NCBI RefSeq assembly: GCF_964204645.1
Contig: NC_134026.1
Span: 15,534,150 to 15,598,149, forward strand
Direction: 5' to 3'
Length of the DNA: 64,000 bases
Source: Tubulanus polymorphus
Taxonomy: Eukaryota > Animalia > Nemertea
Shown here one piece after another: positions 10,607-63,445 of this stretch. Under the pieces are notes generated by a model that had not been told where the DNA came from, made no database searches, and worked only from the letters and a program-made list of their open reading frames with translations. Both the position numbers and the translations under genes were made by a program. Every line of letters starts with the position of its first letter. The first letter of the stretch is position 1.

Positions 10607-11878
10607 CTAGGTAGAAACTTTCAGATTATTGTGCTCACGGACACTTGGGCTATTTGTCCTTCCCGTAAAGACAGTTCGACAGCGATTGCTGAAGTTGAGG
10701 TATCCTCGTAGACGGTCTTTTGTTCTGTCGGACATTTTCCACGAGGCATAAAGCACCGGGTTTGTGCAAGTTGCTAGAAACCCTAGCCAAGAGAACGTTA
10801 TATATGTAATGTCCATAAAGTTCTCTTTTTCTTCAGTCTCCTCGCCAACAAATGGAACAACCAATGCCATGATGTGCAACGGGCACCAACAGAAACCAAA
10901 TACAGTCACCATAGATATCATATACTGTTGATTACGTTTCTCTTTATAGATATCCAGCTCATCTTCATTTTGGTTAGATACTTGGTCTTCAGTTGTACAC
11001 ATATCCTGTTTATGTGCGGATGCAATACTAGTGCTTTCAGGTTCGTTCTGAGTAATCGACGACCACGTTCCTTGGTGGTGATTATATGCGTCATCCCCAT
11101 TACTACATCGTTCCTCCTGCCTACCATTACTATTGGCAAACGTAGAAATCTGCGTTTTCAATTCAGCTGAAACCTTGATATGCAGAAAAGCAATAACCGC
11201 CAATGGCACTGCGTACATTGTTACAAATATGGCTCGAACAAATTCCGCGTAATTCTCTCCGATACGAATATAGCATATACCGAAGCCATCATATTCAGGA
11301 AGGAGGTCACCGATATTAATGAACCTGAAGTAAACAGCTATAGGTAGCACAAGACACACAGATATGCCCCATGCTGCTATGGTACACAACCCAGCAGGGA
11401 CGCGCGGTTTCATCGGGTACAATATCAACCTATACCGATCAACTGCTATAATCACGAATGTCAACATGGACACATGTATGGGAAAACTCTGTAGCATAGG
11501 TAAAAAGTAACAAAGAAAACTCCCAAGTATCCAATTTCTTAATAATATATTGGACAACGTAATTGGGAGCACTAATGTAGTTTTTATGATATCCGATATG
11601 GCCAGACTTCCGATAAAAAAGTGTGTTGGATCATAAAACAGTTGCCGGCGAACTATAATCCAAAACAAACACACATTACTTAGCGTTCCAAAGCACGCAA
11701 CGATTGCATAAAAGAAGACAAACACTGGGTAAAGAATGCTCAAATTTGTACGTATCTGATTCCACTCAGCGCTTATAGTATCATTCTCATCCATGTTATC
11801 GTGAATCCACTTGATAAGGACATTTATATCGGTGATTTCGCTAACAGATTTAGCTGCGGGGATCTCGGATTTAGCCAT
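10607..11878 (-). CDS. Intronless class A (rhodopsin-like) GPCR, neuropeptide receptor of the NPY/PrRP/sNPF-like group
   Basis: 423-aa intact ORF with seven hydrophobic segments, TM2 LAISD, WILGSFLC, DRY, CWCPLH in TM6, NPVLY in TM7, N-terminal N-glycosylation sites (NDT, NLS) and a long third intracellular loop. Confidence 0.93.
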   Translation of the reverse strand: MAKSEIPAAKSVSEITDINVLIKWIHDNMDENDTISAEWNQIRTNLSILYPVFVFFYAIVACFGTLSNVCLFWIIVRRQLFYDPTHFFIGSLAISDIIKTTLVLPITLSNILLRNWILGSFLCYFLPMLQSFPIHVSMLTFVIIAVDRYRLILYPMKPRVPAGLCTIAAWGISVCLVLPIAVYFRFINIGDLLPEYDGFGICYIRIGENYAEFVRAIFVTMYAVPLAVIAFLHIKVSAELKTQISTFANSNGRQEERCSNGDDAYNHHQGTWSSITQNEPESTSIASAHKQDMCTTEDQVSNQNEDELDIYKEKRNQQYMISMVTVFGFCWCPLHIMALVVPFVGEETEEKENFMDITYITFSWLGFLATCTNPVLYASWKMSDRTKDRLRGYLNFSNRCRTVFTGRTNSPSVREHNNLKVST

Positions 11879-12763
11879 CTCAATAGATATAATTGACCAG
11901 CAGTCTATAGTATTAAGAACGGCCAGTTAAACATTTTCAATGAGGCTGTTACACTATTGTCGCATGACCCATAGGCCTATCCATGATGTGCAATTGTGAA
12001 CACCCAGTCTATATTCAACAACGAAGCATCCACATATATCACTTTTATAAAACATCAGCATCATAACCGTACTCCTTATTTTCCACATTCGAATTGAAAT
12101 TTGTCAAATTTGCAGTACTGCTTAGCAGCTATCACACCTACTAGCAAATATCGCGAAACGCAGTACTACGCGTGTAATGGTGGTCGACTCCTGATCACCT
12201 ACATGGTGCAAACGAATCGATCCCTGACAACCATCACCTCGTACAGTTCCACGTAGAAAAGCTCGCTGATAAAGGTAGCGCCTGAAAGCCGGACCCGGAC
12301 TCAGACTCCGGACTCAAAGTCACACGGACATGGACGTAATATTTCGGTCTTGGTTAATAATTAAGGATTTGGTAGAATAACGTAGTATAGTATTGATGTA
12401 GTTCCAAGCTTATAAATTTTTGTCAATTAACACGCGGAAATGCATTTCATTGTGAAGACTACAATATAATAATTATCTAAAATGACTAACGCTAGGGTAG
12501 AGAAAAAAGAAATTATAAGTTAGCAATCGAATACTGATGGACCAAAATGTCAATTGTAACAATACACATATCGGGTGAATGTACTTAAGGAAAATCTACC
12601 GTTCGGGAACATGATAATTGGCCATAGTTAGTAAATTCGATGACGTCACTAATTTGACAGTATCCCATCATTTTCTATCATTGCCTTGAAATTGTTGTAC
12701 ACATTTTATCTTTATTTCATATATACCCTTAATGTTTAAATGTCTGTAGCTAATAATCCATTA

Positions 12764-28821: not shown

Positions 28822-29996
28822 GCGAAGTATGTATGTCCTGTCAATTTCACGATACGATTGACCGGCCAAACTGGTTGGAAATAGATCAATAATAAAGTTA
28901 TCTATATATAGTTTTCAAGTTTTAATAGTTTTCTTGAGAAAAACTTTAAAGATTAGTTATCTATATTCCAGTTATCTAAATAAGTTGTTCTCAGCTATTT
29001 GCACATTGATAAAAATGTGATAACAATATTTAGATATAGTATGAATATTATAAATTAAATGTCTTTACGAAATGTTTGTCTTTGATATATTGTTCTTTTC
29101 CAGTACACATCCATGCAGTAGTTCAACACTTCTTCTTGACATGCTGTAGTTGCTCCTTTTTACATAATAATTTACATAATAATCCTTCTTGGAAAGTTTT
29201 AGCTGTAATGAGGAATGGATGACGGAAATATAAGTGATCGAAAAGTGTAAATTTGAAGGAATTTTCACATCGCGTAGTTCGTCTGACACCCATGTAGATG
29301 GCGCTGATGATGACACAATATGAGCTACATGCTGAATTCAAGCCAGCGCAAATTCCTAGTTTCATGCTGATATACATGACATATAAAGTTTTAGGTTTTA
29401 GTTATAGGTTTATCTTATATGACCGGCTTTACTGCATAGTATATATTACACTCATCAGATCCTGGTATTAGAGCCGTGGGAAACACTACCGGTACTGATC
29501 ATCTGAGTAGTCGTGTTTACCTTGCCGGCTACCGCGCTGTACTAGGCCGATTGGAGGTAAAAGTGTGTCATATCTTGATTATTTGTAAATGGTTACATTT
29601 CTGATGAAAATAATGATATAACCAATAGCAAGTAGTCAGTGCACGTTCAGAAAATTCGTGCACCTGTTATTCAGTAATCAGTAATCAGCAATCAGTAATA
29701 GGCCTATACGAATTTTAAAATCCTGCAAAACAGTTCAAAGAAGTTCACTGTTCACTGGTCCAATCAAAACAACATTGAGGTATATGTGAAGGATCGATGT
29801 CAAATGAAAATTAATAGACATTAGCAGCGGCGGTCCAGGATACCATGGAGGAGGTGCACAAATCCAAATAGGAGGGGGGGGGGGGGGTCTGAGGGTCCAA
29901 CCCCAGAAAATAGCAATTTGAATAGTGATTTTCAAACTTTCATGAACGATGCAGAACTGCCGCAAAAAAGCGCTGGTAATTGTAAACGACGACATA

Positions 29997-30089
29997 AGTA
30001 ATTAGAAATTGTGGCTTTCAGGCCAGAGGGCGAGAGGGCGAGACACCTCTCATCACCACAAGTAATTTTTTTTTCTTATAAATGGGAGA
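29997..30089 (+). repeat. Polinton left TIR (~93 bp)
   Basis: AGTAATTAGAAATTGTGGCTTTCAGGCCAGAGGGCGAGAGGGCGAGACACCTCTCATCACCACAA…ATAAATGGGAGA; one mismatch to the right TIR in the first ~64 bp. Confidence 0.95.
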
Positions 30090-33000
30090 GAGTGAACAAC
30101 ATACAGAACAAATTGATGTTAATGAAAATCAATTTTATTGTACATATTGTAAAAAATACATTGATAAAACTCATAAAGCACGACATGAAAAAACCGTAAA
30201 TCATATAAAAAATGTTATAGATTTTGAAACTCCAGAAAATTCCAATGAAAGAAAAGAACGATTAGATGATATGAATGTGGATGAAATAAAATGTGAAGTT
30301 TGTCATGAATTTATAGTAAAAAGGAATTATAAAAGACATATCAAATCACAAAAACACCATCAAAATTTGAGTAATAATGTTTTAGGAATAGATTATTTCG
30401 GTGATAAACCTCAACAAGTAAAAAAACCAACTTCAAAAACTAAATCCATTTCAAATAAACCTTACATGGAAAATGTTAGAAATTATATCGATTCACTAGA
30501 AATAAAAGTTACAATTGAAATTTTAGAAACATTACATAGTTTAATTGGTCCTGCAGCCATTATATTTAGATTTTTTAAAGGTACAACAATAGAAGATTAT
30601 AGTAAGTTTAATGAAATAATGGGAAAAATACTAGATTTGATAACAGATGTTGAATATCCAAAAATTAGTATCTCTGGGAAAGTAAGTTTTTTAAAGTCAG
30701 AGGAGAAAATGGATTATAATATTCAAACACTCTCTGAAGAAATAATTTCAAAAACACAAATAAAAGAGAAGTTAGAAAAAATATTTAATGAATTTAAACG
30801 TCACATTGAAGAAAGATATTTTGAGGGTTCTGGTTTAACATTGAATGAAATTATATTTTTAGATTTAAATGATAATGTTACAAAAAGGAATAAAACATCA
30901 AAAAGTAAAACAATGTTTAAAACTGATCCAAACTTTACTACAGAAAAGGATATTAAAGCATCAAGTTATATCAAATTACCATTTACAACAAAAGCAGTAA
31001 TAAATGTTCAAAATGAAGATAATAAATGTTTTCCATGGTCAATTATTAGTTGCTTACATCCAACAGAAGAACATGTTTATAGAATAACAGATTACCGGAA
31101 ATATGAAACATTATATAAAATTGATCAATATCCAGTAACTATAAAAATGATAGTTAAGATAGAAAAAGTTAATAATTTTTTATAATAAATGTATTCGAAT
31201 TAATGTAATTACCAAAGACAAAAGGTGAAAATATTAAAGATTATACATTAGAAGCTTTATATTTAACAGAATATTATGATGATGAAAATGCTATAGATTT
31301 GTTATATTCAAAAAAGATGAAAATGAACATTATATGTGGTTAAAACAAATTGATTTATTCTTTAGAACAGAAAGTGATCATCATCGTAAAATTTATCTAT
31401 GTAGAAAATGTTTATCTAAATTTATGACTGAGAATACATTATTAAAACATAAAGAAGTATGTGACAATAAAGATTTTTGTAAATTAATAATGCCAACAAA
31501 AAAGATTGTAAGTTGAAATTTACTAATCATAAATTTAAAAATATTGTTCCATTTGTAATTTATGGAGATTTTGAATCGTTGATTAAAGAATTAACTGATC
31601 AAGATACAAAAGAAATATACAATAAAAAGCAATTTTTAAAATCAATGGATAAAGGAAATGAATTAAATGAAGACATAATTCAAGATCCACCAATTATAAA
31701 CACAATTTAAAAAGTTCATCAAAGAGCTGCTGCTTATGGAATTTTACATAAAGTCAAATTATCCTGAATTATATGAAAGTCAATATATTTCCTTTAGGTT
31801 AATGATTTTTGTAATGAAATAAATGAATTAGAAAGTGATTTTGCAAAATTATTGAACAAAAATAAAGGAATAGTTATGACAAAAGAAGATGAAATTCATT
31901 CTAATTATGCAACTCATTGTTGTTATTGTGAAAAACGTTTTTATTCATTTGATAAAAAAGAGATCATGATCATTTAAATTCAAAATACCGCGGAGCTGCT
32001 CATAAAGATTGTAATTTACAAGCTAAGAAAGTTAATTTCGTACCAATATTATTTCATAATTTATCAGGCTATGATACCCATCTATTTATAAAACAATTAT
32101 CGGGAAAATTGGGCGCAATTAATCAAGAAATAGAAGAATATAATGCTATGAATGGTGCAAATGTAAGGAAATATGATTTTAAACTATTAGCTAAGACATC
32201 TGAAAATTATTTTTCACTTCAATTTGGTTGCATTAGATTTTTAGATTCTTATAGATTTCTAGCAAGGTCATTAGATAATTTAGCAAACGTTTAGTTGATA
32301 ATGATTTTATAATAACTCAACATTATTATCCAAATGAACAATATTTTAAATTATTGAGATATAAAGGCGCAATTCCTTATTCATTTTATAAAACACATGA
32401 TGATTTTAATGTAACAGAATTATTAAAAGAACAATTTTATGATCAATTAAGAGGAGTATGTGAAAGATGAAGTGTTTAATAGAACATTAAATATTTGGGA
32501 TCACTTTAAGATAAAAAATCATGGTGAATTAGTAGATTTATATTTAAAATCAGATGTTGTGATATTGGCTGACATATTTGAAAAATTTAGAGAAGTTAAT
32601 TTGAAGTCCTGGTTTAACCTGACAATGTGGTTTAAAATATACAAATGTAGAATTAGATTTATTAAAAGAACCAGACATGGTTTTATTATTTGAAAAATCA
32701 ATAAGGGGGGGGGGGAATTAGTGGTGTTATGGGAGATAGACATTTTAAAGCAAATGATGAATATAAATTATTATATATTGACGCCAATAATTTATATGGT
32801 TAGGCAATGATGCAACCTCAACCATACAAAAATTTTATATTAACTGAAGTTGAAAATGATGATAAAACTGACTGGGAAAGCGCAATTACGAGTTTAAAAG
32901 ATGAAGCACCAATTGGTTATTTCTTTGTAGTTGATTTGGAATATCCTGATAACATAAAGTTTGAAACAAGAAATTTACCTTATTGCCCTGAACATTTAGC

Positions 33001-35067
33001 TGTAGATGATAGTTATCTAAGTGAATACCAGAAGAATATAAAACCGAAAGATCATGTTTTTACAGAAAAATTAATACTTACTCAAAATAATAAATACAAT
33101 TATATTGTTCATTATAGACTGTTAAAATTTTATCTAAAACAAGGATTGAAATTAAAGAAAGTACATAGATATATTGAATTTAATCAATCGAAGTGGTTAG
33201 AAAAATATATAGTTATTAATACTCAACAGAGAACCATATCAAAAACAGATTTTGAAAAAGATTTCTTCAAATTAATGAATAATAGTTTTTATGGTAAAAC
33301 ATGTGAAAATATTAGAAATAGAAATGATATTGAATTAGTAAATAATTCTGAAAGATTAAGACATTTACAATCAAGCCCTAGACATTTAGGAAATAAAAGA
33401 TTTGAAAATTATTTAACAGCAGTAAAATTAAAAAGAATGTCAATGAAATTTAATAAACCTATATTCATTGGTTCAACTGTTTTAGAAGTATCAAAATTAT
33501 TAATGTATGATTTTTATTATAATGTTTTACAACCACTTTTTGGGGAAAAACATATAGAAATCTTATATTTTGATTCTGTAACAGCTGACACCCCAATATT
33601 ATTAAAATGTAATGATAAAATATTGAACAAAATGAACGTTATATTTCATATGGTGAAACAGAATTAATACAAATAAATGGATTAATGGATGTTTGGACAA
33701 GAAATGGATGGAAAATATTAAAGAATATTATTAGGCATAAAACAAATAAGAAAATCCATAGAGTTAGAACTAAATTAGGGTTTGTATATGTTACAGAAGA
33801 TCATAGTTTAATTAAACGAAATGGTGATGAAATAAAACCAACTGATATAAAAATTGGGGATGAATTATTACATAAAAGATTTTTCCAAAGAATGAATCAT
33901 ATGTCATTTGATGAAATAATTGATAATATTTATAATATAGAACCCGAAACATTAGAAGAAAAAGAATATTTTATCGAAGGAATTTTTATGGGAAATGGTT
34001 CAGCAGGTGTGTATAATAGTGTTAGTGGAACTTAATATTGTTGGTATTTATGCGATCAAGATTTGAAATTATTAGAAAGAATTAAGAAATTCTGTGAAGA
34101 AGTTTACTCAAATAAAACATTTAGAATCATGGATGTTATGAAATCATCAGTAGTTTATAGAATACTCGTTAATAACCCTAAAGATTTTGCAATTAAATAT
34201 AAAGATGAATTCTATATTCATGCAACAGTTAAAAGTAATACTTCAACTAAAGAAAAGATAGTGCCAAATTATTTATTAAATGCAAAAGATGATTTAAGAA
34301 AATGGTTCTTCATTGGATTCAATGCTGCAGATGGTTCAAAAAGTTTCAAAAACCGCAAAACAATATCTTTAGCTCAAAAAGGAAAAGTTGCTATATCAGG
34401 ATTGAATATATTATGCAATTCATTAGGTTTTAATATGAATATTGGATTGATTAAATCTAAACCAAATTGTTTTAATTTAAGCCATGTAGAAAATGAGTTA
34501 ACTGAAGAAGTTAAAGATTTATTTGAAATATATAACCCATCAGATTATGTTTATGATTTATCAACTGAAGATGGAACATTTAACTGTGGATATTCATTAA
34601 TAGCGGTCAATACGGATGCCTACATACTAAAAATCAAGACAAATGACATAACAAAAGACTTAAAAACATTAAAACATCATTTTGATTTTAGCAATTATCC
34701 CAAAGATAATGAACTATTTAGCAATGATAATAAAAAGATTCCTGGTAAGTTTAAAGATGAATTAGGGGGTGATGAAATGATTGAATTTGTTGGGATAAGA
34801 AGTAAAATGTATAGTTATAGAACAAAAGATCATGAAGCTAAAAAGTTAAAAGGAATAACAAAACATGTGGTTGATAAACATATAGAATTTCAAGATTATA
34901 TAAAATGTTTATATAACTCATTTGTAATGAAACATAAAATGAATTGTTTAAGATCAGAAGATCACGAGATGTACATTAATGAAGTTGAAAAAACTAGTTT
35001 GAATCCATTCGATGATAAAAGATATATTTTGGGTGATGGAATAAAAACATTACCTTATGGTTATTAA
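30082..35067 (+). pseudogene. polB: Protein-primed family B DNA polymerase (pPolB) with N-terminal zinc fingers, EndoVII-like insert and intein; multiple frameshifts and stops
   Basis: SSYIKLP..AVINVQNEDNKCF; ExoI VPFVIYGDFESL; ExoII FHNLSGYD; FLDSYRFL; ExoIII YLKSDVVILADIFEKFR; motif A YIDANNLYG*AM; motif B KLMNNSFYGK; motif C YFD/TDA split by the intein; GKFKDE, RSKMY, KLKGI, FDDKRY. Confidence 0.95.
33575..34611 (+). mobile_element. Intein with LAGLIDADG homing endonuclease in pPolB motif C (one frameshift, one premature stop)
   Basis: Block A SVTADTPILLK after YFD; block B GFVYVTEDHSL; LAGLIDADG-like YFIEGIFMGNGS and FFIGFNAADGS; block F YVYDLSTEDGTFNC; terminal Asn (IAVN) followed by +1 Thr (TDA). 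Frameshift near 33615-33625, TAA at 34033-34035. Confidence 0.93.
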
Positions 35068-36377
35068 AACGTAAAATCAATATCATCATACTCGAAATCA
35101 CTACTGGTTTCTTCATTTTTATTTAATTGTTTAGGTTCTTGCATTTCATTTTTCTCATTTAAATAAAGTTCTATATTGTACCACATTTCATCTCGCTCTC
35201 TTTGTTTCTTTTTGTTTGTTAATTCATCAAATGGAATTATAATATCGATGTTTAAAAAATTTACAATCTTATTTCAAAAGAATTCATAATTAATTGAATC
35301 TATTATTCTATTATTTACATAATATCTTAATATTTTTTTGAATGTTTCTTTTATATTTTCCATATCTTCTTCTGTTAATTCAGGTTTTTTATAATAATCG
35401 TTAAATAATAGATGTAAATACATTTTCTTTCCTTGTGTGTTAAATGTTGATGGAATAATTGTTTTTATAATATCTTTCTTAGTTATTTCACCATTTTTAT
35501 TTTCTATCATTTTAATTTTTTCAAGCCATAGCGTATATTCTGGTGTATGATCTTCCATAGAAAATATCTTAAAAATTTCATCTAGATATTTTAATTTTGG
35601 TTCTATAAGAATATCTCTAGTTTTTTCATCACCCCATAAATTTTTTTGCCATCCACATTCATTACAAAATATCACAGGTCCTTCTTGTCTTAAGTGCCCA
35701 TAAATACATTGTGGGCATTTTTTTCTATCATTTCTTGGTAAAAGACCTTCATTAAGCTCTTGGTATTTTCTTACGTTTTCTTTATGTTTTATTGTTCTAT
35801 TATGTAGATTTGAATTACTTGTTGTAATAAACAATTTACAATATTTACAATAATATGTTTTTCTTACTAATTCATTATATTGTTTTTCCAACTTTTTAAG
35901 TGTTTCTTCATTATCTGGCAACGTTTTCTCATATTTTATTTTTTCTAATATTTTATTTTTTCTTTCATTGAATTCAGTTTCAAATTTATTAGAAATTTTA
36001 TCTATATGTGCTTTACGAAATTGATGATTCTCCCAATCTTCTATATTTTCAGGTCTATATTTTATTCGACAAGGCTCACAGAAATATTCTTTTATATTAT
36101 CCTTATTATAGAATAAGAAAGGTCTTTTCCAAATAATTTCAGATTCAACTTCAACAGAATTACTACTACTTTCGTTACTATCAACATTTACCGTTGTGTC
36201 ATTAATTTTACACTTCTCTGAATGTTTTTCAACATAATTTCTTGAGAATAATTTATTACAATTTGGGCAGTTTATTTTAAAGGGTTCATAATTTTTATCA
36301 TGTTTTTTCATATGTCGAGCCATATTACTTTTTCTTTGAAGTTCACCACAAATTTCACATGGTATCTTCTCATCCAT
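35064..36377 (-). CDS. Multi-zinc-finger protein (C2H2/matrin-like fingers plus a C4 ribbon), with an in-frame TGA at 35274-35276
   Basis: CEIC..HMKKH, CPNC..H..C, CEPC..H..H, CKYC..H..H, CPQC..CNEC. The frame stays open for a further ~69 codons past the TGA to TAA at 35064-35066, which overlaps the polB stop. Confidence 0.75.
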
Positions 36378-36444
36378 TAATTTAGGAAAAAATTTATTAA
36401 AATTAATTTTTAGTGATGAGAGGAAATTTTTTGTGCTATAAATA

Positions 36445-37203
36445 ATGGGTGAATTAAAAGAATATATAATATTTGTTGATTCTAGAAGGCTTACAAATTA
36501 TAAATCACATAATTTATTGGTACAATTAGATAGAGAATTTAATAATTGTGTTGATTTAAAATTAGTAAATGTAAGTTTATGTAAATCATTTTACAATATA
36601 TCGAATAAAACTAATGAACATAGAGCCTTTTTAATTTTTAATAAAAATAAAAATGAATGGGCCTATATATATTTAAAACCGGGGTTATATAATTTAGATA
36701 CATTGGCACAAGAAATTAATAGAAAAGCCTGGCACAAGTCAGGTAATAATTCCGGGTTTAATATTAGATTTTTAAAAAGAGAGAGTTCTAACAAAATAAA
36801 GATAAGGTTGGCTGATATTGAAAAACATTAATTTATGGTAAAAAAACCTATAGCTAAACTGTTAGGAATTCCTCCAGATAAATCTTTTACAAATATTGAT
36901 GCAACACCAAACTTGATACCTTTTACACACTTTTATATTTATTGCAGTTTAATCGATCCTACAAAAACATTCGAAGCAACTAAAGATATAACTTGTAATT
37001 CTGGTTTATTAAACATTTTACCATTGAAGAATGTTAAAGAATTTGGAACGCAAATAAATTATAATTTAGCTGATTGTGATTTCAAACCATGCATTCCTAA
37101 ATTTAATAATTGTAGATTAGAAATTAGAAATCATAATGGATACTTAATTGATTTAAATAATTTCCCTGTTACTTATGAATTAATTATCAGATGTAGAGAG
37201 TAA
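36445..37203 (+). pseudogene. Minor capsid protein (penton, single jelly-roll), one in-frame stop at 36829-36831
   Basis: IFVDS, SFYNIS, KPGLYN, AKLLGI, FYIYCSLI, LLNILP, LEIRNHNGYLIDLN pattern typical of Polinton mCP; the two ORFs are in the same frame. Confidence 0.75.
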
Positions 37204-37218
37204 TTTTTTGATATATAA

Positions 37219-37560
37219 ATGAATATAACAGTAGGGCCGAGTATATGTTTTGGGTTTGATTATAAACATGGTAAAAAAATTAGAATTAAACTAAATGATG
37301 TAATTACTGATATTAAAAGTAAATCATTTAATAATGTATCAATGATTAATAAAGAAAATTATATTATAGAAAAAGTAATTGATTTAATTAAAACACCTTT
37401 AGAATATTATGAATTAAATGAAGATGGAATTATCGATGATATTAAAAACATATTATCCAAAATATATGATAATCATAAAACTAATAATACTATAAATGTT
37501 GAAATAATCATAAATAAGATAACTGATTATTTTGAAGATAGTAATTTCTTTTCTAAATAA
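37219..37560 (+). CDS. Hypothetical Polinton protein (113 aa)
   Basis: Intact ORF with T-tract plus TAAATG start context shared with neighbouring genes. Confidence 0.6.
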   Translation: MNITVGPSICFGFDYKHGKKIRIKLNDVITDIKSKSFNNVSMINKENYIIEKVIDLIKTPLEYYELNEDGIIDDIKNILSKIYDNHKTNNTINVEIIINKITDYFEDSNFFSK

Positions 37561-37782
37561 ATGGCGGATCAGAAGTGGAACATAACTGGATTATATAATG
37601 GAGCATTACTATCAGTTGGAACTGTTGGTTATTCAATGGTATTAAAAAAAGTATTTAAAATGGGAAGTTTTAATGTTGATAGATTTGATATAAATGATAT
37701 TTTAAAATTAACGCTAGCAGTTACTTTATCTAATGTAACTGTTGATTATTTGGAAAAACAAAACTATATTCCTCCTATATAA
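37561..37782 (+). CDS. Small hydrophobic/amphipathic Polinton protein (73 aa)
   Basis: Intact ORF, two hydrophobic segments, ends NYIPPI; TAAATG start. Confidence 0.65.
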   Translation: MADQKWNITGLYNGALLSVGTVGYSMVLKKVFKMGSFNVDRFDINDILKLTLAVTLSNVTVDYLEKQNYIPPI

Positions 37783-37806
37783 ATACCTAATTTTTTTATT
37801 AAATAA

Positions 37807-38208
37807 ATGGCATCTGCAATTATAACTATTATAGGATCGGCAATTGTTAACGCTTTAGCATTTACTGGTGGTGGATATTTGTTTGAGCATATTGATAAAA
37901 ATAGTTCATTAGCAGAACAAAGAAGACATAACTTAGCGTCAGAAAAATATAATAAAGCTGCAGAAGAATATAGAGAAAAGAGACAAAATTACATGGATTA
38001 TATTAACAAAGAATTATATGATCAGAAGATTTCACATAGGGATTTTCAATCAGTTGATGATGCAATGAGTTTATATAACGCAGTAACAAATAAAGAAAAA
38101 TTACATCTATACAAACCTAAATTATCGGATTATTATACCCCAAGTAAAGAACAACAGAAATATGAAATAATGTGGATTTTAGGTGGAACAGTTATTGTTT
38201 ATTTGTAG
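37807..38208 (+). CDS. Polinton membrane-associated protein (N- and C-terminal hydrophobic segments, central coiled coil)
   Basis: MASAIITIIGSAIVNALAFTGGGYLF…EQRRHNLA…PKLSDYYTPS…ILGGTVIVYL; TAAATG start. Confidence 0.7.
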   Translation: MASAIITIIGSAIVNALAFTGGGYLFEHIDKNSSLAEQRRHNLASEKYNKAAEEYREKRQNYMDYINKELYDQKISHRDFQSVDDAMSLYNAVTNKEKLHLYKPKLSDYYTPSKEQQKYEIMWILGGTVIVYL

Positions 38209-38247
38209 CATATAAATTTACTAATTAGTAATTTTTTTGCTAAATAA

Positions 38248-38661
38248 ATGGATGATGAAGTTGATAATAATGATATTATTCCTCATGATATAAATAAAAC
38301 TAAATTAAAAACATATTTAGAAAAACAAACATTAGAATTTGAAATGACTTAAAGATTAAAAAAAAATATATATTATTTTATTATTAGTGGTTCAGTTACA
38401 ATTAGTTCTGTAATAACATTTCTAGCAATATTCAGTCCATTAACACCTTTAGCTATATCAATTGGTGTGCTAGGATTATCATCAAGTGTTTTAACTGGTA
38501 TAAGTTCAAAATTGAATATAAAAAGTAATAAACAAAAAATTAAAACTAATATAAAAGAAATTAATAAATTAAAAAATACACTAGATTATAAAATGAGTTT
38601 AAATGGTCATATAACAGTTGAAGAACAGGACAAATTATTAAAAGAATTAATGAATTATTAA
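38248..38661 (+). pseudogene. Two-TM coiled-coil protein, disrupted
   Basis: TAAATG start at 38248, stop/frameshift near 38350, then YYFIISGSVTISSVITFLAIFSPLTPLAISIGVLGLSSSVLTGISSKL. Confidence 0.6.
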
Positions 38662-38678
38662 TTTTTTTTATTATATAA

Positions 38679-39990
38679 ATGGTAGATAGTTTTCCAAAAG
38701 CTTTCCAATATAATAAATCGATTAAATATAATATTCCAGCAATAGATCTTAATAAAGATATTTCATATGGAAATGAAGTTTTCGATTCATTAATTAATTT
38801 AGATATTTATGTTACTGAAACTAATAATTTTAATGCAAAGATGGAAAATATATTTCATGTGTATACAATTAATTTTAAAAATCTAAATGAGGCAAAACAA
38901 TGGTTATTAAAATCTAATATGAAGTATTGGCAGAACCAATTAAATTTTGCTGTTTATTGCGCAACAACAGGGTGCGGTATAAGTTGGAATGATCATTTAA
39001 ATAAACCAAGTTTACCATTGCTATTATCACTTTTTAGATTTCATACATATTTTCAAATAAAATTAATGAATGAAATTAGAATGTCCTTTACCAGGTTCAA
39101 AATATTTTAAACAATTGGATAATAATATCAATTTTTCTAAGTCTTATAAAATATGTAATGAATTTGATATTAATTTGTCTATTAATGATTTTAGAGCAAA
39201 AATTGGAACAATGGGTGGATTAGGAATATTATATACTAAAGAATTTGGTAAAATAATAGCAAATTCAGATATAAGAATACTAAATTGGAATGAATTACCA
39301 AAATATTATAATAATATACAACAAAAAAATAATGGTTGGATTAATTTCATTTTAGATAATATTGAAGGTTTTACAAAATCAGGTATACAAAGAATAAATC
39401 AATCTATTAGAACTTATTTGATATGTGTTTTGGAAATGATAACACTTCATTTGATGCGCAGAAACAATTTAAAGTTTTATTTGAAGATTTCATACATATT
39501 GATAAAAATAGATCGATTCCAGAAAACATAGTTAGGTACCAAAATTATTTAGATAAATCACATATTAGATTAAATTATTGTATAGGCCCTAATCTATTAA
39601 TTATTTCTAATGATTTAGTATTAAAGATGGGAAATATAATTGGTTATAATAATTTAATTAAGACTGCAACAATAAATAATTCATTTGGATTGAATGATAT
39701 AAATAAAACGATTATTACTGCTCCAAAATTAATGGAAGGTGAAAACATTAAAAAACATTTTCAATCAACAGAAACTAAAACTAAGAATATTAAATAAAAT
39801 AATGATTCTAAAATAAAAGATTACAATACTACAGAAAATGGTGCCGTACGGCACCCACACGGTGATATAAAAACTGATATTATTCAACATGACATAATTA
39901 AAACTGATAATGATGATAAATCTCATGAAAATACTAAATTAGCTATTACTTGTATAGGAATTGTAATAGAAGGAATATTATATTTTAAAT
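38679..39990 (+). pseudogene. Conserved unknown Polinton protein (YWQNQLNFAVYCATTGCGIS motif), frameshifted
   Basis: Three overlapping ORFs (38679, 39070, 39423) join by frameshifts; hydrophobic tail near 39940-39990. Confidence 0.6.
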
Positions 39991-40011
39991 TTTATTTTTT
40001 TTATTATGTAA

Positions 40012-41433
40012 ATGGAAGTAGAAGGTGGAGAAGATTATGAAATGGGAGAAATGGGAAATAATAATGATGGGTATATTGATGATGATTATAATGATGCTGA
40101 AACTAATATTGATAATGATAATGAAACAGCATATAATTCTAATTTAGCAGATAGTGGTTCTAAAGACCCATCAACAGATGAATTTGATAGAAGAACTAAA
40201 TCGAGAATAAATCCTGAAAATCCAGATTTAGTAAAACAAAATTTAGAATATAATGAATATATTTATAATTTTAAACCTATATTTGAAAGATCTGGGTATA
40301 ATATAAATGCCAGAGGCGCCAGACTTTTAGTAACAGAATTAAAATCTTTAGATGGTGAATATTATTATCATTTGAAAGATGATTATTATATTAATATCAC
40401 TTATAAGAATCAAAATAAAATATTAGCAGAATCAACTTTGAGTAATTTAGAATCATCTAGAATTAAAAGAATAAGTAATAGCAATGAAATATAAAATGTA
40501 ACACAAGAAGAAGTAAATCAAAATAAAAGAGTATTTAAACAAAGAATTGATAATTATTTGAAACAATCAATGATAATTTAGAAACAGAAACAACTTCTGA
40601 ACATATAACTTCCAAAACTAGTAAACTTAAATCAAATAAAGTTCCAATTGAAAAACTTTTACTAAATGGGTTACTTGACGCAACAGATCAAGAATTAGAT
40701 ATATTTTCTGATAAAGCAATTAGAGAAATTATTAGTATAAGACTTGCATCTGATAAAATTGCGCATGATAAAAGTATAAGAGATTTTAAAATTAGAAAAA
40801 GATAGAACTGATAAAATTAAGGAAATAGAACAATTGAAATTAGAAAGATAATAAAGTTATTGAAGAAATTGAATTTAAAAAAAGAAATGCATATTTAGAA
40901 AAAGAAAAAGATGATTTAGAATATAACATAGAATTTCAGAAAGAAGAAATTAAATTATTAAAAAAATCACATGATTATAATATTAATAGATTAAAAGTTA
41001 TTTTTAAAGATTTGTTGATAAAACCAAATTCTGAAATATCATTAAAAGATAGAATAAAATTATAATTTAAACTAGAAGGTATAACAATTCTTTCAATTCT
41101 AACAGCTGTAACTATGTTATTTACAATAATTGGTTTAGCTATTTCAATTTCATTAAAATCCACGCCTACACCCAATAAACTGGATAAACCACCAAATAAT
41201 AATTTATACAAGATAAAGTGAAAGATGGTTTAAAAAAATTAGCAAAATATTTATGGGAACTATCTAAAAAATCTGCCGCAGCTTCACCCGGAGTTATAGC
41301 GTCAATTGTTGGTTTTATATTGAAATCTGCAGGAAGTATTATTAACTTTGCTGCTGAACATATTATTTTATTTTTAATTACAATTGTTAGTGCTATTATT
41401 TTTGGGTTAGTGAATATGATAAAAAATAAATAA
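40012..41433 (+). pseudogene. Acidic N-terminus / coiled-coil / C-terminal membrane protein, disrupted
   Basis: ORF 40012-40494, broken coiled-coil middle, EGITILSILTAVTMLFTIIGLAISI, then ORF 41218-41433 (PGVIASIVGFIL…IILFLITIVSAIIFGL). Confidence 0.6.
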
Positions 41434-41453
41434 TCAATTTTTTTATTAAATAA

Positions 41454-42701
41454 ATGAGTGGGAGTTATATAAATCCTTCTAAGAATTCTAGAATATCTAA
41501 TGCTATTAAAGCAGAGAGATCTCATCATATAATTACTCATAATCCTTCTAATATTAATCCTGATGAAACATTATATGTTAGAATCCCGAGATTAAATCAA
41601 AATACTTTTTATGTTCCAAATAGTATTTATTTATCAGCTGATATAAAAGTAACTTGTCATGATGATAATTATGTTGTAGATAATGTTGGAAGATATTTGA
41701 TTAAAACATTAACTATAAAGATTAGACCAGAAACAGTTTTCTCATTAGATGATTATAATTTATTTATGCATTATAAAGATGTATGGTTAACAAAAGAAAA
41801 TAGAAATAATATGATATTTCAAGGCATCCAATCAGAAAATCAAAATAAATTAAGATCTGAAGCTAATAATGCAGTAGTAACTAATGCTGTAGATAATTTA
41901 ATCAAAAAGATTTATGGAAGCAAATACCAAATTCCGTTAGACTTTGAATTGATAAATAATAATGCACCTTTGTATAAATACGCAATTCAAGAAGATATTA
42001 TATTCGAAATAACATTTGCTCCTGTTAATGAAATTGTATTATCAAGCGTAGTTAAAGATATGGGTTATAAATTATCGAATATATGTTTAGAATATGATAC
42101 AGTATCTGATGAAAATATTGCTAACACAATTCAAACTCAATACAATCAAGGATTTTCATTATTATATGATTACATTGATAAATTTAAAACTGTAACTATT
42201 AATGCAAATGAAGAAATAATTAACGAGAATATTAACTTCCCAAGGAGATCTACTAAAGGCGAATTAATATTCTTTACCATTGCAACATTTCTAATGGCGC
42301 AATAAATGTTGATGATTATTATAATCCTGAAATATCAAAAGTAGAAATAACAATTGAAGGTATAGCAAATAAAATATTTTGTCAGAGAATGAGAATGATA
42401 GATCAGTGGCCAGAAATTAGAAAACATTTTATGAATGAAAGAAATAAATCATCTGAAAATTGTAATATTAATCAAATTGATTATTATACCGGCAATAAAT
42501 ATGGATTATGGTTAGATTTTAGAACAACAGAGGATAATTCATTACGTGGTTCTGGGAAAAAGCTGCAGAATACTAAAGATGGGATACAATTATTCATGAA
42601 AAAGAAGAAAGGAATCAAAAAATTTCAAAATGCACATTTATATTATATCTGACGCGCAATTAAATATTATAAATTCTCAATTAGATAGTATTCAATATTA
42701 G
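41454..42701 (+). pseudogene. Major capsid protein (double jelly-roll), two frameshifts
   Basis: KAERSHHIITHNPSNINPDETLYVRIPRL, VDNVGRYLIK, YKLSNICLEYD, NINFPRRS, KYGLWLDFRT, GSGKKLQNTKDGIQL, HIYIISDAQLNI; ~415 codons. Size and position next to the integrase fit an MCP; family recognised from memory. Confidence 0.75.
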
Positions 42702-42731
42702 AAATATTAAGTTAAAATTAACGATATATAA

Positions 42732-43794
42732 ATGGGTGTTAAAAAAACTCCTAATACTAAAGAACAATAATTAAGAAATTTATATTACAACCCTGGGAGT
42801 TCGGTTGCTTATTCTTCTACCAAAAATATATGGCGTCAAGTAAAACAAGATAAATTAGATAAGATAATCCCACAAAATTTAGTTAAATATAATGATATAA
42901 ATGATTTTATGTTAGAACAGCCAACATATACAACACATAAAAAAATTGTTAGAAAATATAAAACTCGTAAAACTATGGTAAGTTATGTAGATCAACAGTG
43001 GCAAGGAGATTTAATTGATATGAAAAATGTTAAGAAAGATAATGATGATTATTGGTGGATATTAAATATGATTGATATTTTTAGTCGTTATGTATGGAGC
43101 TTCCCACTTTATAGAAAAGATGATGTACAAACATCAAATGTTTTAAGAAAATTTCTTTCGGATGATAAACTAAAACCAGAAAAAATACAATTTGATGATG
43201 GAAAAGAGTTTGATAATTCACTTGTTCATGAACTCTTAGATAATCATAATATTAAATATTTTTCAACAAAATCGGATAAAAAAGCAGCAGTTGTTGAACG
43301 ATTTAATAGAACATTAAGAACAAGAATGTGGAAATATTTTACAGCAAATAATACTTTTAAATGGATTGATGTTTTACCAAAATTGATAGAAGGATATAAT
43401 AATTTTTATCATTCTTCTAATTTATATGGAGCATTTCTTGTAGATGATTTTGGTGAACCTAAATTTAAAGTTGGTCAAAATGTTAGAATTTCTAAGTATA
43501 AAAAGATATTTGACAAAGGATACGATCGATTTTACTAGGGAAATATATAAAAGGTTATAACAACAAAACCATATGTCTATAAATTAGAAGATTTAAATGG
43601 TGAAGATTATTGATGGGTATTTTTATGAAGAAGAATTGAGTTTAACTACTGAAAACCTAGAACAAGAATATAAAATTGAAAAAGTATTAAAAACAAAAAC
43701 TATTAAAAGAAAAAAATATTCTTTAGTAAAATGGGTTGGATGGCCAGATAAATTTAATGAATGGATATTATCAAGTAAAATTAAAAATATATAA
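42732..43794 (+). pseudogene. Retroviral-like (rve) DDE integrase with C-terminal chromodomain
   Basis: LYYNPGS, QWQGDLIDM, IDIFSRY, IQFDDGKEF, KAAVVERFNRTL, PKFKVGQNVRIS, chromodomain YKIEKVL..LVKWVGWPDKFNEWI; stop at 42768-42770 and frameshift near 43535. Confidence 0.93.
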
Positions 43795-44049
43795 ATGAAT
43801 AAGGAATTATTTATATTTGAACCTCATAATGTGTTAATTTCTGGTGTAACAAATTGTGGAAAAACTTATTTTATATCAAATTTATTAGAAACTATTTATA
43901 AAAACTATTTTGATAATATAGTATTATTTTGTCCAACATATGAATTAAATCAAACTTATGATATAATATTACTAGAAATAATAAATTTATTATATTAGAT
44001 CCTAAAACAGTTAAAGAAAATTTAGATGATTGTATTAAAATAGCAATTG

Positions 44050-44127
<78 letters not shown>

Positions 44128-44476
44128 GTATAAAAGATCTAATACATTATTTATCATAGATTATTGTGTTAATCTACATGATTCAAAAGTTAGAGAAAGT
44201 GAGTTATGCTATTTAGCTTTTTCTGGGAGACATTTTGGGATAACAACATGGGTTTTAAATCAAAAATATAATTCAATTGTTAAAGATTTTAGAGAAATTA
44301 TTAGATTTTTAGTTTTATTCTACAATAAAGATAGGAAATCGATGAAAAATGCACTTGAGGAAAATGATATTATTCCGCATGATTTACATAATGAATATAT
44401 GGATAAATTGAAAAATAATAAAAGATCAAATTTACTATTTCGATTACAACACCCATTTAAATATGAATTCATTTAA
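43795..44476 (+). pseudogene. A32/FtsK-like DNA packaging ATPase, frameshifted and interrupted by a microsatellite
   Basis: Walker A ISGVTNCGKT, degenerate Walker B LFIIDY, GRHFGIT..LNQKY motif. Confidence 0.88.
44050..44131. repeat. (AT)n/(ATGT)n microsatellite inside the ATPase gene
   Basis: Direct reading of the sequence. Confidence 0.95.
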
Positions 44477-44695
44477 ACTCAACTAGCTTGTTAATCTAGT
44501 ATATTTTTAGTTACATTCTAGTTGAAATCTCGTTATTGGTAGTTGAAACAAAAATCAAATAAAATTCAACAAAAAATAAATAAAAATAACAATATTTCAA
44601 CTAGCTTGTTAATCTATTATGTGTTTAGTTACATTCTAGTTGAATTCTAGTTGAATTCTAGTTGCAACAACACAACTAATTTGTTTGTTATATAA

Positions 44696-45265
44696 ATGGG
44701 AGGTGAAAAGAAAATAAAATCTAAAAATAGTGATGTTCCAATTGAAAAAACTTTAGATGATTTAGGAATATTAGAAACAAAATTAACTCCAGATGATGGT
44801 TCTTTAAATGATATTACCACAAATAATAATTATGAATATTTTCTTTATTGCAAAAATCAATTAGAAATATTAATAGCATCTGGGAAATGTAAAAATTTTA
44901 TCGGTAAAAATTTAACTTATAATGAATTAGATACAATGAAATCAGATGAAATTGTTAGATTATTTAAGATTTAATTTTAGAACCGCGAGAACAGCTAGAA
45001 TTAATTATGTAAATATATGCTACCAATTCAAGATAAAAATAAATTATATTCCGATTTAAAAAATGATTATTTAGTTATGGCTGAATTAAATAAATGGATT
45101 GGATATTTATCATTTCAATTAGGCGGATTTATGACATTATTATCAACTGGAGTTATAACATTTTCAAATATTGGAAGTAAAAATTTTTCTATAATAAATG
45201 AGCGAAGTGCGAGAGGTGAAGGAATTAGCTGTGAAGAAAAAACCGAGAACTCCGAACCAAGTTGA
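44696..45265 (+). pseudogene. Unknown Polinton protein, disrupted
   Basis: ORFs 44696-44974 and 45017-45265 after a TAAATG start; hydrophobic C-terminal segment. Confidence 0.55.
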
Positions 45266-45553
45266 ATGGTCTCGGCAATTAGGAATTAAATCACAAGAAT
45301 ATAAAAAAGCTGTAAAAGAAAAAATAAATAATGAAAACGTTAATAAAAATGGTGAAAATATTGTTATTTCTACTTCTTCTAATAATAGAATATTTAATAT
45401 CTATATTTTACAACTGGATTTGTAATTGTATTCATTTTGATTGGGTGTAGTTGGTATAAGAAATCAAATAAAATTTATGATATTAATAATTCTGAAACTA
45501 CTGCTATTAAAAATGAAAATACTTCTGAAATTCCAAAATTCACAATGAAATAA
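45198..45553 (+). pseudogene. Small Polinton protein with a TM segment, frameshifted
   Basis: TAAATG start; the homologous copy at 63030-63300 retains the TM frame (CLYFTVGFVIVFILIGCNWYKK). Confidence 0.55.
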
Positions 45554-45592
45554 AATGGATTAATATTTCAGAAAAAAAGCAAAAAAAAAAAA

Positions 45593-47250
45593 TTTTTAGC
45601 GAACCTATGGTTCGCTTCTTATGCCAACGGTCTAGTTGGCCTTGTGCCAATATTGCTAGAAAGTGATGTTAATAAGCCACATTTTGAAACGGTGATAGAC
45701 CCGGTCGTATTTCTTGTTGCAGATGATTCAAATAGCCACTGTATTTTCGAATAAACACTCGCTATTGTGCGAATTTCGTTGCGATGTGATCGATCTACGC
45801 TGTAAAATTTTAGATAATTAGAAAATTTCCTTAGCTTTTATATAGTTTGACATGACCTGGAATAACCTAAGTCATGAATAATAATTAGCAGATGCGCATG
45901 CGCTTAACACTGCGTAGAATGACAGGTGGATCCTCGCTAAAATAGATCCATTTTGTAAAATATCAAGCTGTGTATTGTCGATTACTGTTAAGAAAACAAA
46001 TGGCGGAAAAGCACGTTACATTTTTATACTTTGGTCACTGATCGACACTAGAAATAAGAGTACCGTCGACGTCAAGATACTCGAAGAAACCGTAGCGTAT
46101 TAACTTCCACCAGTCGTCGGGTATGGTACATGTACGAGGGAGGGAGGTAAGTCTTCAGTTTCTCCTGATGAATTAACGAATCACAATGTATATCCAATAA
46201 AAAGACCTTCATTTTTTCATGACTGGACCTCGTTTGTAAAAAAAATGCCTGCTGAATCGGAATACAAACTTCTTTCAGCTATATCGTTTGCCCCTATAGG
46301 TTATTAGGAGAAAAAAAAAAAACTTCCACCCCTCCACTTTTTACTCAATGGATTTGCTGGCCTTGCGATTGCGCAATACCGATTAATGATGGCAGCACCA
46401 GCTTGCCAATTGAAAGCTCTCCACATTTTCGGCTGTCCCTGAAGCTATTTTAATAGCGAATGTGCGATTACTGAATTATTTCCGAAAAAAGTTATAACAA
46501 CATAATTAAAGACCTGATTTAGCGATATGAACGGTGGGTTTGAATTGCTTTGTCTTCTTATCTGTCGCTACAATGCGTGTTTGTGCATGAAAACAGTTTC
46601 TTCAATGATTTTGATAGAACATTGCACAGGCTTTTAAAACATTTCTTGAGGGTGGCCAGGCTGAAATTTCGAGATGATACGAACGAACTTAATATTCAGC
46701 GTAATTTAGCAACTCGCGATATTTGGTCATTAATTAGTTTGCTGGGGCAATGGAATACAGAAGCATCAGTAAAACATATATTGTCCTCTTGTTTAGGTAA
46801 TGATCTGGCGAGTAGCAGTCATTAAACTTATAACGAAAATTACGACGTTCACGGGAAACCATAACCTAGATACACGTACGACGGAACATCTGAACTATTC
46901 AAGATTCCAGTTATTGTAAAAAAATTAGCTTTTTATTTTGCAAAAAAATAAAACATTTTATTTTATATGAAGTGTTACCTCTCTATCTCACAGTTCTTTG
47001 TCAACTAAGTTTTGATTATTACCCCCCCCCCCCTCCGCCCCAATTTCAAATGCAAAGTTCAATGTTACCCAGGATTGACTGGTAAGATTAACAATGCCAG
47101 ACTTAATCTCTCGATGAGATCTTCCTGACCAATTACTTATTGGGACCAGGTCAGCAGCCACTTCTTTGAAAGCATATTTCGCCTTCTTCCTTTTACTTCT
47201 CAAATTATCATATCGGTGAGCTTCTGGGCCATTGGTCCTTTATTTTTGAT
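45593..47250 (+). mobile_element. ~1.66-kb secondary insertion in the Polinton, Helentron/HINE-like
   Basis: Absent from the second copy, which is continuous at ~63340. 5' T-run plus palindrome AGCGAACCtatGGTTCGCT; 3' GGTGAGCT, short stem-loop GGGCCATTGGTCC and T-run; higher GC than the virus. Confidence 0.7.
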
Positions 47251-47358
47251 TAATTGAATATCTCACTACTTTTGACTATCTACGCGGAGCAATTAAATTG
47301 TCCACATAAGTCATTTCGGATTCTAGATATACATTATTTTTATTATTTTATTTTTTAT

Positions 47359-47685
47359 TTAATCAAAAATTTCTAAATCATGATGACCGTCTTCATTTTT
47401 TGCATGATAGATTATTTTAAATCCTTCTAAATCTTTTAATTCCTCTATACTCAATGAAACCCATTTATCAGGTAAAAATACTTTAAATTCTCGCGTTGTA
47501 CTAACACTACAGTAACTTAAATTCGCTGATACTTTCTCTCTATATTTAGTTTTTATCTTTTCGAATTTCAATATTTTATGTTCAATTTCTTTTGTAACAT
47601 CGACTAACTTTTTTATTTCAAATTGTTTTTTTGCTGGTTTTTTTCTGTTATTTATTGTTGCTAAGAATGCTTTTCTATCTCCCAT
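47359..47685 (-). CDS. Hypothetical Lys-rich Polinton protein (108 aa) starting within the right TIR
   Basis: Intact ORF; its ATG is the TIR-mirrored equivalent of the polB ATG. Confidence 0.65.
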   Translation of the reverse strand: MGDRKAFLATINNRKKPAKKQFEIKKLVDVTKEIEHKILKFEKIKTKYREKVSANLSYCSVSTTREFKVFLPDKWVSLSIEELKDLEGFKIIYHAKNEDGHHDLEIFD

Positions 47686-47770
47686 TTATTAGGGGAAAAA
47701 ATTATTTGTGGTGATGAGAGGTGTCTCGCCCTCTCGCCCTCTGGGCTGAAAGCCACAATTTCTAATTACT
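47678..47770 (-). repeat. Polinton right TIR
   Basis: Reverse complement of 29997-30089, followed by GACATA. Confidence 0.95.
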
Positions 47771-49079
47771 GACATAAGTTTACACATTTTCTGGGATTTT
47801 CACATGGTTGTCATCGTTCTCACGAAAAGGTCATTCCATGAAAAATTACCGAGGACTTTAGGGGGTGCACGTGCCCCCTGTGCACCCTCTGGATCCGCCG
47901 CTGATTAGATTGCCAAGTAGTGAGTGCCACCATTCAGTACCTAAGCAAATGTAATCGCTTGTTCATTTACGAGACTGAGATCAATGGTTCCCTGTCTTGA
48001 CTGTCCCAAATGATATGTTTTTTAAATGTGACTATATAAAAAATATCAGTCTATTATTTGAAGAAATATCCCTTCGTATGATTTGTAAACATTATTAAGA
48101 TAGGTTTGCTATACCTGTATTTTCGAATAAAGCTATTCATATCAAAGAATGCTACACAAAGAATGCTACGTATATGTGAGCGAAGATATGATACCATAAT
48201 CCAGTTCCTGAGACAGTATACTCATCCCTGGGGGAATGAACAATAACTCTTTCTCACACTCTGATAAGCCAATAGGCGATCTTCATAAAGTCACGGGTAA
48301 TGTGAAATAAAGAAAAAAAAACTATCGAATATTGGTACATGAATCAATTGAAGAAATTACGACGAGTAAGAGAAAAGGAACGTTTTTTAACGTTCGTTTT
48401 CTTTTCACTATTGCAATGGCTTTGCACCACAATAAAATGCCATCCGCAGAGTTTTGCTAAGCTGTTGTTAAGACAGCTGAGAGAAATTCAATTTCAACCA
48501 CGCATTATCATCTAGTGTTCATCATATTTAGCTAGTGTTCATCATCTTGAACTAGTGTTCCTTTAAGTCTTCCGACCAAAGCTTTGTCCTAAGTCCATAA
48601 CCTCGATTAATGAGCCGCGTTCATGCAATTCTCAAAATAAGCTAAAAATGTGTAATTAGCTAAATTAGTCTTCTCACTGCGGATGGTTACATTTCATTTC
48701 ATTTTTATTGTTCCACAAAAACATGTTTTGCACAGAACATTCATACATTCAATCTTAACAGTAGATGGCATTTTACAGCGAAGCACATCGTTGATAAACA
48801 TATATACATACACACAATACACACACACACACACACACACATGTACGATGGGTAAATATTACGGGACCTCGTTTACGCACCCCCAATTAATTTACAGAAG
48901 TTACTTAGTTTTACCGCCATTTTGTGCGTATGGTAAACTTCCCCGAGGTTTTCTATTCTTGGTACCCCCAATAGTAACGCGAGAAAAGGCGCGCTCTTTC
49001 GTTAGCATATACAGGGCATTCTAAAATAGCATGCCTTTCATCCCCCAGGGTTTGGGCGTTACACTTCGTAACTGTCATC

Positions 49080-63026: not shown

Positions 63027-63445
63027 TAAAGGAATTAAATCACAAGAATATAAAAAAGCTGTACAAGAAAAAATAAGTAATAAAAATGTTAATAAAAATA
63101 GTGAAAATATTGTTATTTCTACTCGTTCTAATGATAGAATATTTGATAAATGTCTATATTTTACAGTTGGATTTGTAATTGTATTCATTTTGATTGGGTG
63201 TAATTGGTATAAGAAATAAAATAAAATTCATGATATTGATAATTCTGAAACAACTGCTATCAAAAATGAAAATACTTCTGAAATTCCAAAATTGATAATG
63301 AAAAAAATGGATTAATATTTTAGAAAAAAAAACAAAAAAAATAGTTGAATATCTCACTACTTTTGTCTATCTATGCGGAGCAATTAAATTGTCCAGATAA
63401 GTCATTTCGGATTCTAGATATTCATTATTTTTATTAATTTATCTT
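63027..63445 (+). mobile_element. Fragment of a second, related Polinton copy
   Basis: Colinear high similarity to 45282-45592 joined directly to 47251-47345. Very AT-rich sequence continues to ~63760 but does not match the first copy. Confidence 0.88.

Follow-up and report, generated by a model that had tools for sequence, protein, structure and literature searches.

A decayed pol-c intein in the DNA polymerase of a Polinton integrated in DNA of animal type, with probable traces of homing among its relatives

In the window, as we call the complete 64,000-nt stretch of DNA analysed, a 1,037-nt insert (33575-34611, + strand) interrupts the protein-primed DNA polymerase (PolB) gene of an integrated Polinton. 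Its identity as a true intein of the known pol-c allele is confirmed at the level of sequence. The reading that we hold to be probable is that of a dead intein copy in a Polinton polymerase, intact copies of which are predicted to splice and have likely spread by cutting intein-free copies of the gene. What appears to be new is the kind of host: the known pol-c allele here occupies the protein-primed polymerase gene of a Polinton with many copies, and is accompanied by putative signs of homing.

Terminal inverted repeats combined with a 6-bp target-site duplication are a feature of Polinton/Maverick elements. The element in the window spans 17.8 kb (29997-47770): its left terminal inverted repeat (29997-30092, + strand; 96 nt) is 93% complementary, with seven differences, to the right one (47675-47770, - strand), and identical 6-bp target-site duplications are found at 29991-29996 and 47771-47776. 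The GC content of the Polinton is 0.25, against 0.35-0.38 in the flanks. An integrated Polinton in animal-like DNA had been proposed in a preliminary description of this sequence, and its integration is borne out by the inverted ends and the perfect duplication. The window also carries a rhodopsin-family GPCR gene (10607-11926, - strand; a single ORF, E 4e-40), and because this flanking gene resembles animal receptors, the host is likely an animal, as proposed. Another ORF in the host flank (59364-59969, - strand) has a P2RX7_C domain. Two stretches inside the Polinton (45281-45588 and 47251-47363) match one host repeat (63030-63456, 91%), with approximately 1.7 kb of higher-GC DNA between them; we read these as nested insertions made after integration.

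Besides its ends and target duplication, the Polinton features of the element are a protein-primed PolB, an rve integrase and a weakly matching A32-type ATPase. The polymerase section upstream of the intein (30082-33574, + strand), delineated by tblastn with the intein-free polymerases P0066 and P0067, contains several frameshifts and stops; its last 257 codons are 71% identical to those two proteins, and one piece of it matches Pfam DNA_pol_B_2 (E 1.5e-5). The C-terminal part of the polymerase (34612-35067, + strand) is an open frame starting from Thr, 76-80% identical to the intein-free P0066-P0068. Relatives from the genomes of oyster, wasp, mite and spider are among the matches to the polymerase. 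The retroviral-type integrase is encoded at 42771-43538 (+ strand; Pfam rve, E 4.1e-10), and the packaging ATPase (43795-44476, + strand; Pox_A32, a weak E of 0.0022), with its Walker A motif in the ORF at 43795, is split by a TA microsatellite. Two ORFs at 41454-42652 (+ strand) are the pieces of what we presume to be the major capsid gene; neither for this candidate nor for a double jelly-roll protein, a minor capsid protein or a protease was a match obtained in Pfam, PHROGs or PDB sequences. U1-type zinc fingers occur in a 407-aa ORF (35274-36497, - strand) and at the N-terminus of the polymerase (30082-31185, + strand).

Many ORFs of the element share a peculiar start: TAA stands immediately 5' of the first ATG in 12 of its 27 ORFs, as against two of 54 ORFs in the flanks. 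Such starts, often preceded by a run of T, are found at 30082, 37219, 37561, 37807, 38679, 41454, 43795, 44696 and 47685, among others. We take this signal to be a late promoter of the poxvirus type, and it suggests that the element depends on a cytoplasmic large DNA virus. There is no mention of such a TAA-ATG signal in the excerpts of PMC11296320 consulted.

The preliminary description had the insert splitting PolB motif C, and six-frame reading places the split exactly as claimed: the polymerase motif YFD ends at 33574, a Ser opens the insert at 33575, an Asn closes it at 34611, and Thr-Asp follows. Every sequence landmark listed there was located. Splicing block B, Thr-x-x-His (33790-33810, + strand), is invariant across an alignment of 104 rows; the first LAGLIDADG motif (33976-33999, + strand) lacks its catalytic acidic residue in the window copy; the second (34315-34335, + strand) is identified by a LAGLIDADG_3 match and the alignment; and splicing blocks F and G with the terminal Asn (34546-34611, + strand) by six-frame reading and the alignment. 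The insert is thus of the class 1 type (Ser first, Thr-x-x-His, Asn last, Thr at +1) with a LAGLIDADG endonuclease domain, in a broken copy. It sits in the catalytic motif of PolB, between its Asp and its Thr-Asp, and is akin in sequence to pol-c inteins, the two properties that assign it to that allele. Exact excision restores the host motif, as seen in reads that skip the 1,037 nt; intein-free relatives read YFD-TDS, and in intact relatives the frame is open.

In the penultimate position, where His is common, albeit not universal, in class 1 inteins, the window intein has Val. The preliminary description used this missing His as a marker of affinity, for which it is poorly suited: within the Polinton intein clade this residue may be Val, Ser, Lys or His, and a residue other than His was found in 72 of the 182 non-Polinton inteins tallied. 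The alignment offers a better marker in block G, where the five main Polinton inteins and one group of giant-virus inteins both have a gap of one residue.

Profile searches, proposed in the same description, matched both expected Pfam families. With the stop read as X, a truncated piece of the window intein matches Intein_splicing at E 4.5e-6 (27 bits, below the cut-off of 35.8) and LAGLIDADG_3 at E 9.8e-5 (23 bits, above the cut-off of 22.5); the relative P0063 exceeds the Intein_splicing cut-off (37.7 vs 35.8). Among PDB sequences, a profile of the 104 relatives matches PI-PkoII (E 1e-14). An AlphaFold model of the intein based on the 104-row alignment reached a pLDDT of 89 and a pTM of 0.89, as compared to a pLDDT of 35 when folded from the single sequence. 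Foldseek ranks 1-12 for the alignment-based model are all endonuclease-bearing inteins, including TliVMA (E 1e-14), PI-PkoII, PI-PfuI and PI-SceI, so that the window intein is predicted to have the Hint splicing fold.

To judge by its lesions, the window copy is dead and could not work. It had been described as broken by a frameshift near 33620 and a TAA at 34033; the in-frame stop within the endonuclease domain (34033-34035, + strand) is real, while the supposed frame slip is better described as a gap that shifts the frame. Compared with an intact relative, about 30 nt are missing from the N-terminal splicing region (~33620-33650, + strand); tblastn with P0008 gives an alignment interrupted from 33631 to 33652, with 17 residues passed over. 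The acidic residue of the first LAGLIDADG motif, lost here, is kept in 13 of 13 intact Polinton inteins, and 219 of 223 reads of a public run differ from the window's degenerate version of that motif. The polymerase upstream of the intein has many further breaks.

The search of raw reads for intein-plus and intein-minus forms that the preliminary description called for recovered both. In a public run, of which 11% of the reads were sampled, 5,152 reads aligned at 85% identity or more, over intein and polymerase alike. Thirty-six of them, from 27 different starts, skip exactly the 1,037 nt of the intein, and in 34 and 10 further reads the intein is replaced by other intein-free versions of the site over a stretch of the same length, so that 80 of the 5,152 reads in all cross an intein-free site. 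Summed read depth is about 175 inside the intein, as against roughly 310-350 in the flanking polymerase. The read genome thus holds a multicopy Polinton family, about half of whose copies have the intein; it may be that of the window's species or of a relative. Four runs carrying the family, which come from a single study and bear a single species label, share 0.31-0.36 of the window's words and may represent a related species; the run sampled is a further one with this label.

The intein is not an isolated single case: inteins of the window type occur in at least four other Polinton lineages. The same intein is present at the same site in the intact Polinton-type polymerases P0008 (59% identity), P0063 (48%) and P0010/P0011 (40%), as well as in the truncated P0070 and in fragments P0002-P0006. 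In all 13 full-length Polinton inteins, both endonuclease motifs keep their acidic residues, and the lineages are 33-48% identical to one another. Carriers are rare, four among the best 120 of 1,185 polymerase matches in a search biased toward intein carriers; the insertion site was unreadable in three of 124 polymerases. None of the polymerases closest to that of the window (71-80% identity) has the intein, and each intein-bearing Polinton lineage has closer intein-free kin. On a polymerase tree of 42 rows, the intein state changes six times, and a single clade of carriers is rejected (AU p 1.7e-51; the 42 rows being hand-chosen).

Several other proteins retrieved may be recorded here. The empty Polinton polymerases P0335, P0337 and P0074 have Cys for the conserved Thr beside the catalytic Asp and are candidate target-escape alleles. 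Inteins of this family also interrupt type II topoisomerase-like proteins (P0009, P0021, P0022, P0237, P0287), at different sites and in some cases several to a protein. In the compact DNA_pol_B_2 polymerases P0050, P0042 and P0007, which do not look like Polinton enzymes, a pol-c intein (a mini-intein in P0042) groups with archaeal-type inteins, possibly the result of a separate entry into that polymerase family.

Fixed differences between closely related full and empty copies lie near the insertion site. The cluster of P0063 (90% identity) has 136 members, on contigs of up to 1 Mb; among the 15 listed, seven are intein-plus, six are empty and two do not cover the site. Between the intein-plus and empty copies (13 of the 136 members, 1,191 alignment columns), all 10 fixed differences in the polymerase fall at -7 to +44 residues from the site, the members compared being not necessarily independent loci and perhaps alleles or repeat assemblies of one locus. 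Of 10 polymorphisms shared among the empties, five are no more than 10 residues away from the site, while the intein-plus copies have none of their three there, and two far-off polymorphic columns are common to both states. The exact flank of the intein-plus copies was found only in 12 of 27 empty sister proteins. In the P0069 family (three intein-plus and two empty copies, again perhaps not independent loci), all three fixed differences lie at -3 to +5.

Such clustering of differences around the site is the footprint expected of homing, with putative cutting by the endonuclease. Either the flanks of the carriers were co-converted from a sister lineage, or the surviving empties may be changed targets that escaped cleavage. 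Both readings would need an endonuclease active at some time.

In the mechanism that we propose, the precursor would splice by the standard Ser/Asn/Thr route and so restore the catalytic motif; the Polinton would need this splicing because the insert splits the catalytic aspartates. The freed intein would cut empty polymerase genes, and repair from a full copy would copy the intein into the cut Polinton. Decay and target escape would then yield new empties, with re-invasion among close relatives. Homing probably takes place mostly among free, replicating Polinton copies that integrate later, while a large DNA virus infects the same cell; we favour free copies because the TAA-ATG starts, read as a late promoter, suggest a life within the infection by such a virus.

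The same cycle could be set in the chromosomes. A comprehensive version, in which a functional intein cycles in animal germlines, converting chromosomal Polintons and selecting resistant alleles after an ancient giant-virus capture and a second, independent one by another Polinton lineage, is possible but doubtful in our estimate. Homing between integrated germline copies as such, the chief competitor of our reading, would have empty Polintons cut wherever they are scattered in the chromosomes and filled with the intein by ectopic repair; we judge it somewhat unlikely. Many integrated-type copies of both states do coexist, in the reads and on the long P0063 contigs, and the local tracts with shared distant polymorphisms fit gene conversion. 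However, conversion among free copies before integration would give the same pattern, and the TAA-ATG starts, read as a late promoter, suggest transcription by a helper virus rather than in the nucleus.

Alternatively, homing may not be ongoing at all: the intein would be inherited vertically and lost many times, intein-plus and empty subfamilies would transpose separately, and one old recombination would account for the local differences. This agrees with the near-identity of the P0063 intein-plus copies to each other, as if from one founder, and with the congruence of the intein and polymerase trees and their similar identities. Yet the six changes of state would demand that one lineage after another lost the intein precisely; the endonuclease motifs have stayed intact in every full-length copy; and the P0063 empties show three versions of the site, although five of the six copies are 97-100% identical in the 100 residues upstream. 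We consider this account improbable.

The source of the intein was sought with profiles and with intein and polymerase trees of 50, 53 and 42 rows, hand-chosen from larger sets. The best 150 of 1,814 profile matches are mostly pol-c inteins of RNA-primed PolB. In IMG/VR, 12 of the 13 best viral loci among the matches listed are giant-virus MAGs; by alignment scans, 136 of at least 160 loci with an intein match have an RNA-primed PolB and none of the 160 listed a Polinton-type polymerase. Scans of IMG/VR with the single proteins P0008 and P0189 gave no matches. The kinship with giant-virus PolB inteins that had been proposed in the preliminary description is thus upheld.

The five main Polinton inteins, including that of the window, form one clade (100/99). 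They branch in the same order as their polymerases, with similar identities (e.g., 54/60/60% against P0008), and because of this match we favour one old entry followed by long co-divergence. A single ancient entry into the Polinton clade from giant-virus-type pol-c inteins is likely, and not a recent jump. Of the earlier proposal that the intein moved between a giant-virus and a Polinton polymerase, the kinship stands, while a one-off event is replaced by a jump that is likely ancient. The separate intein and polymerase trees suggested at the time gave a divided answer: in a quick tree the Polinton inteins are sister to a giant-virus group (SH-aLRT 91), but this relation is absent from a careful tree in which viral rows were fewer, other rows being nearest (94/85). 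The donor link to giant-virus inteins is accordingly of moderate strength, and we infer the direction, from giant-virus-type polymerases to Polintons, from the nesting and the archaeal-type outgroup. A first FastTree, which left out Cys-start inteins and those under 300 aa, put two unrelated-looking rows beside the Polinton clade; this weakly supported placement was set aside.

P0069, P0344, P0345 and P0351 make up a distant Polinton lineage with a different-looking pol-c intein and with empty sisters (P0343, P0349). The P0069 intein is 49% identical to inteins of RNA-primed PolB, as against 33-38% to other Polinton inteins, and is without the block G gap, which suggests a second, independent capture. 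These features could also speak for giant viruses having passed inteins directly to individual Polinton lineages, recently or more than once, a scenario that we regard as very improbable and disfavour for the window's own lineage. The window intein groups firmly with those of four other Polintons, its identity to the nearest viral inteins is only about 40%, and its GC content equals that of the polymerase; even P0069 is compatible with one origin (AU p 0.305, a single origin including it not being rejected). That the whole is an assembly artefact or a contaminant contig is next to incredible, in view of the inverted ends, the perfect target duplication, the host repeats within the Polinton, the animal-type genes in the window, the independent reads holding both intein states, and the existence of intact relatives.

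The yeast VMA1 intein passes through a cycle of invasion, decay and re-invasion, in which it homes at meiosis from one allele of its host gene to another. As PI-SceI, it is a fold match to our model of the window intein; the targets of the latter would be the copies of a mobile element, whether dispersed or free, rather than the alleles of one host gene. Closer counterparts are the pol-c inteins of Mimivirus and archaea, which, in the passages of Ogata 2005 (PMC549080) used here, occupy the same catalytic-motif site (there YGD/TDS) and likewise have Ser first, Asn last, Thr next, the Thr/His block, LAGLIDADG motifs and about 350 aa. Those inteins sit in RNA-primed PolB, whereas that of the window interrupts a protein-primed polymerase, encoded by an integrating element of 17.8 kb in animal-type nuclear DNA. 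Endogenous giant-virus polymerase inteins on algal and labyrinthulid nuclear scaffolds, as excerpted from the Anaeramoeba paper (PMC10710043), are also virus-borne and nuclear, but they belong to NCLDV polymerases of non-animals, while here a multicopy Polinton has empty copies alongside.

Polintons/Mavericks ("adintoviruses") resemble the window element in their inverted ends, 6-bp duplication, pPolB, rve integrase and A32-type ATPase. A term search of PMC8502044 yielded no occurrence of intein, homing or LAGLIDADG. Nuclease domains in Polinton polymerases have been described as HNH/VSR inserts in pPolB2 of nematodes, oomycetes and molluscs, according to the excerpts of Jeong 2023 (PMC10748475) and Krupovic 2024 (PMC11161782). 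The excerpted text of the former contains none of the words intein, Hint or LAGLIDADG; that of the latter suggests, in one sentence, that the inserts stem from intein invasions. Unlike the inserts in these excerpts, that of the window comes with a complete splicing domain and defined splice junctions, and alleles that lack it exactly are present as well. The literature check advised in the preliminary description turned up no report of a Polinton intein in the freely accessible article texts searched.

Inteins are said to be absent from metazoans in the parts of PMC5784728, PMC11409957 and PMC8529194 consulted. The Polinton-borne intein is an exception to this absence, though not in a host gene; among the intein-bearing Polintons, the tie to animal DNA rests on the window element only. 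It also gives the one-sentence guess of intein invasion in the excerpt of PMC11161782 a concrete example, for which both splice junctions and empty alleles are at hand. The intein would have crossed from RNA-primed to protein-primed polymerases, a distance judged implausible for ordinary homing in the excerpts of Ogata 2005 (PMC549080), and it may record, as a fossil, that Polintons of animals once met large DNA viruses. Since sequenced genomes contain hundreds of targets, full as well as empty, both the cycle of homing and the escape of targets would become directly measurable in a multicopy element.
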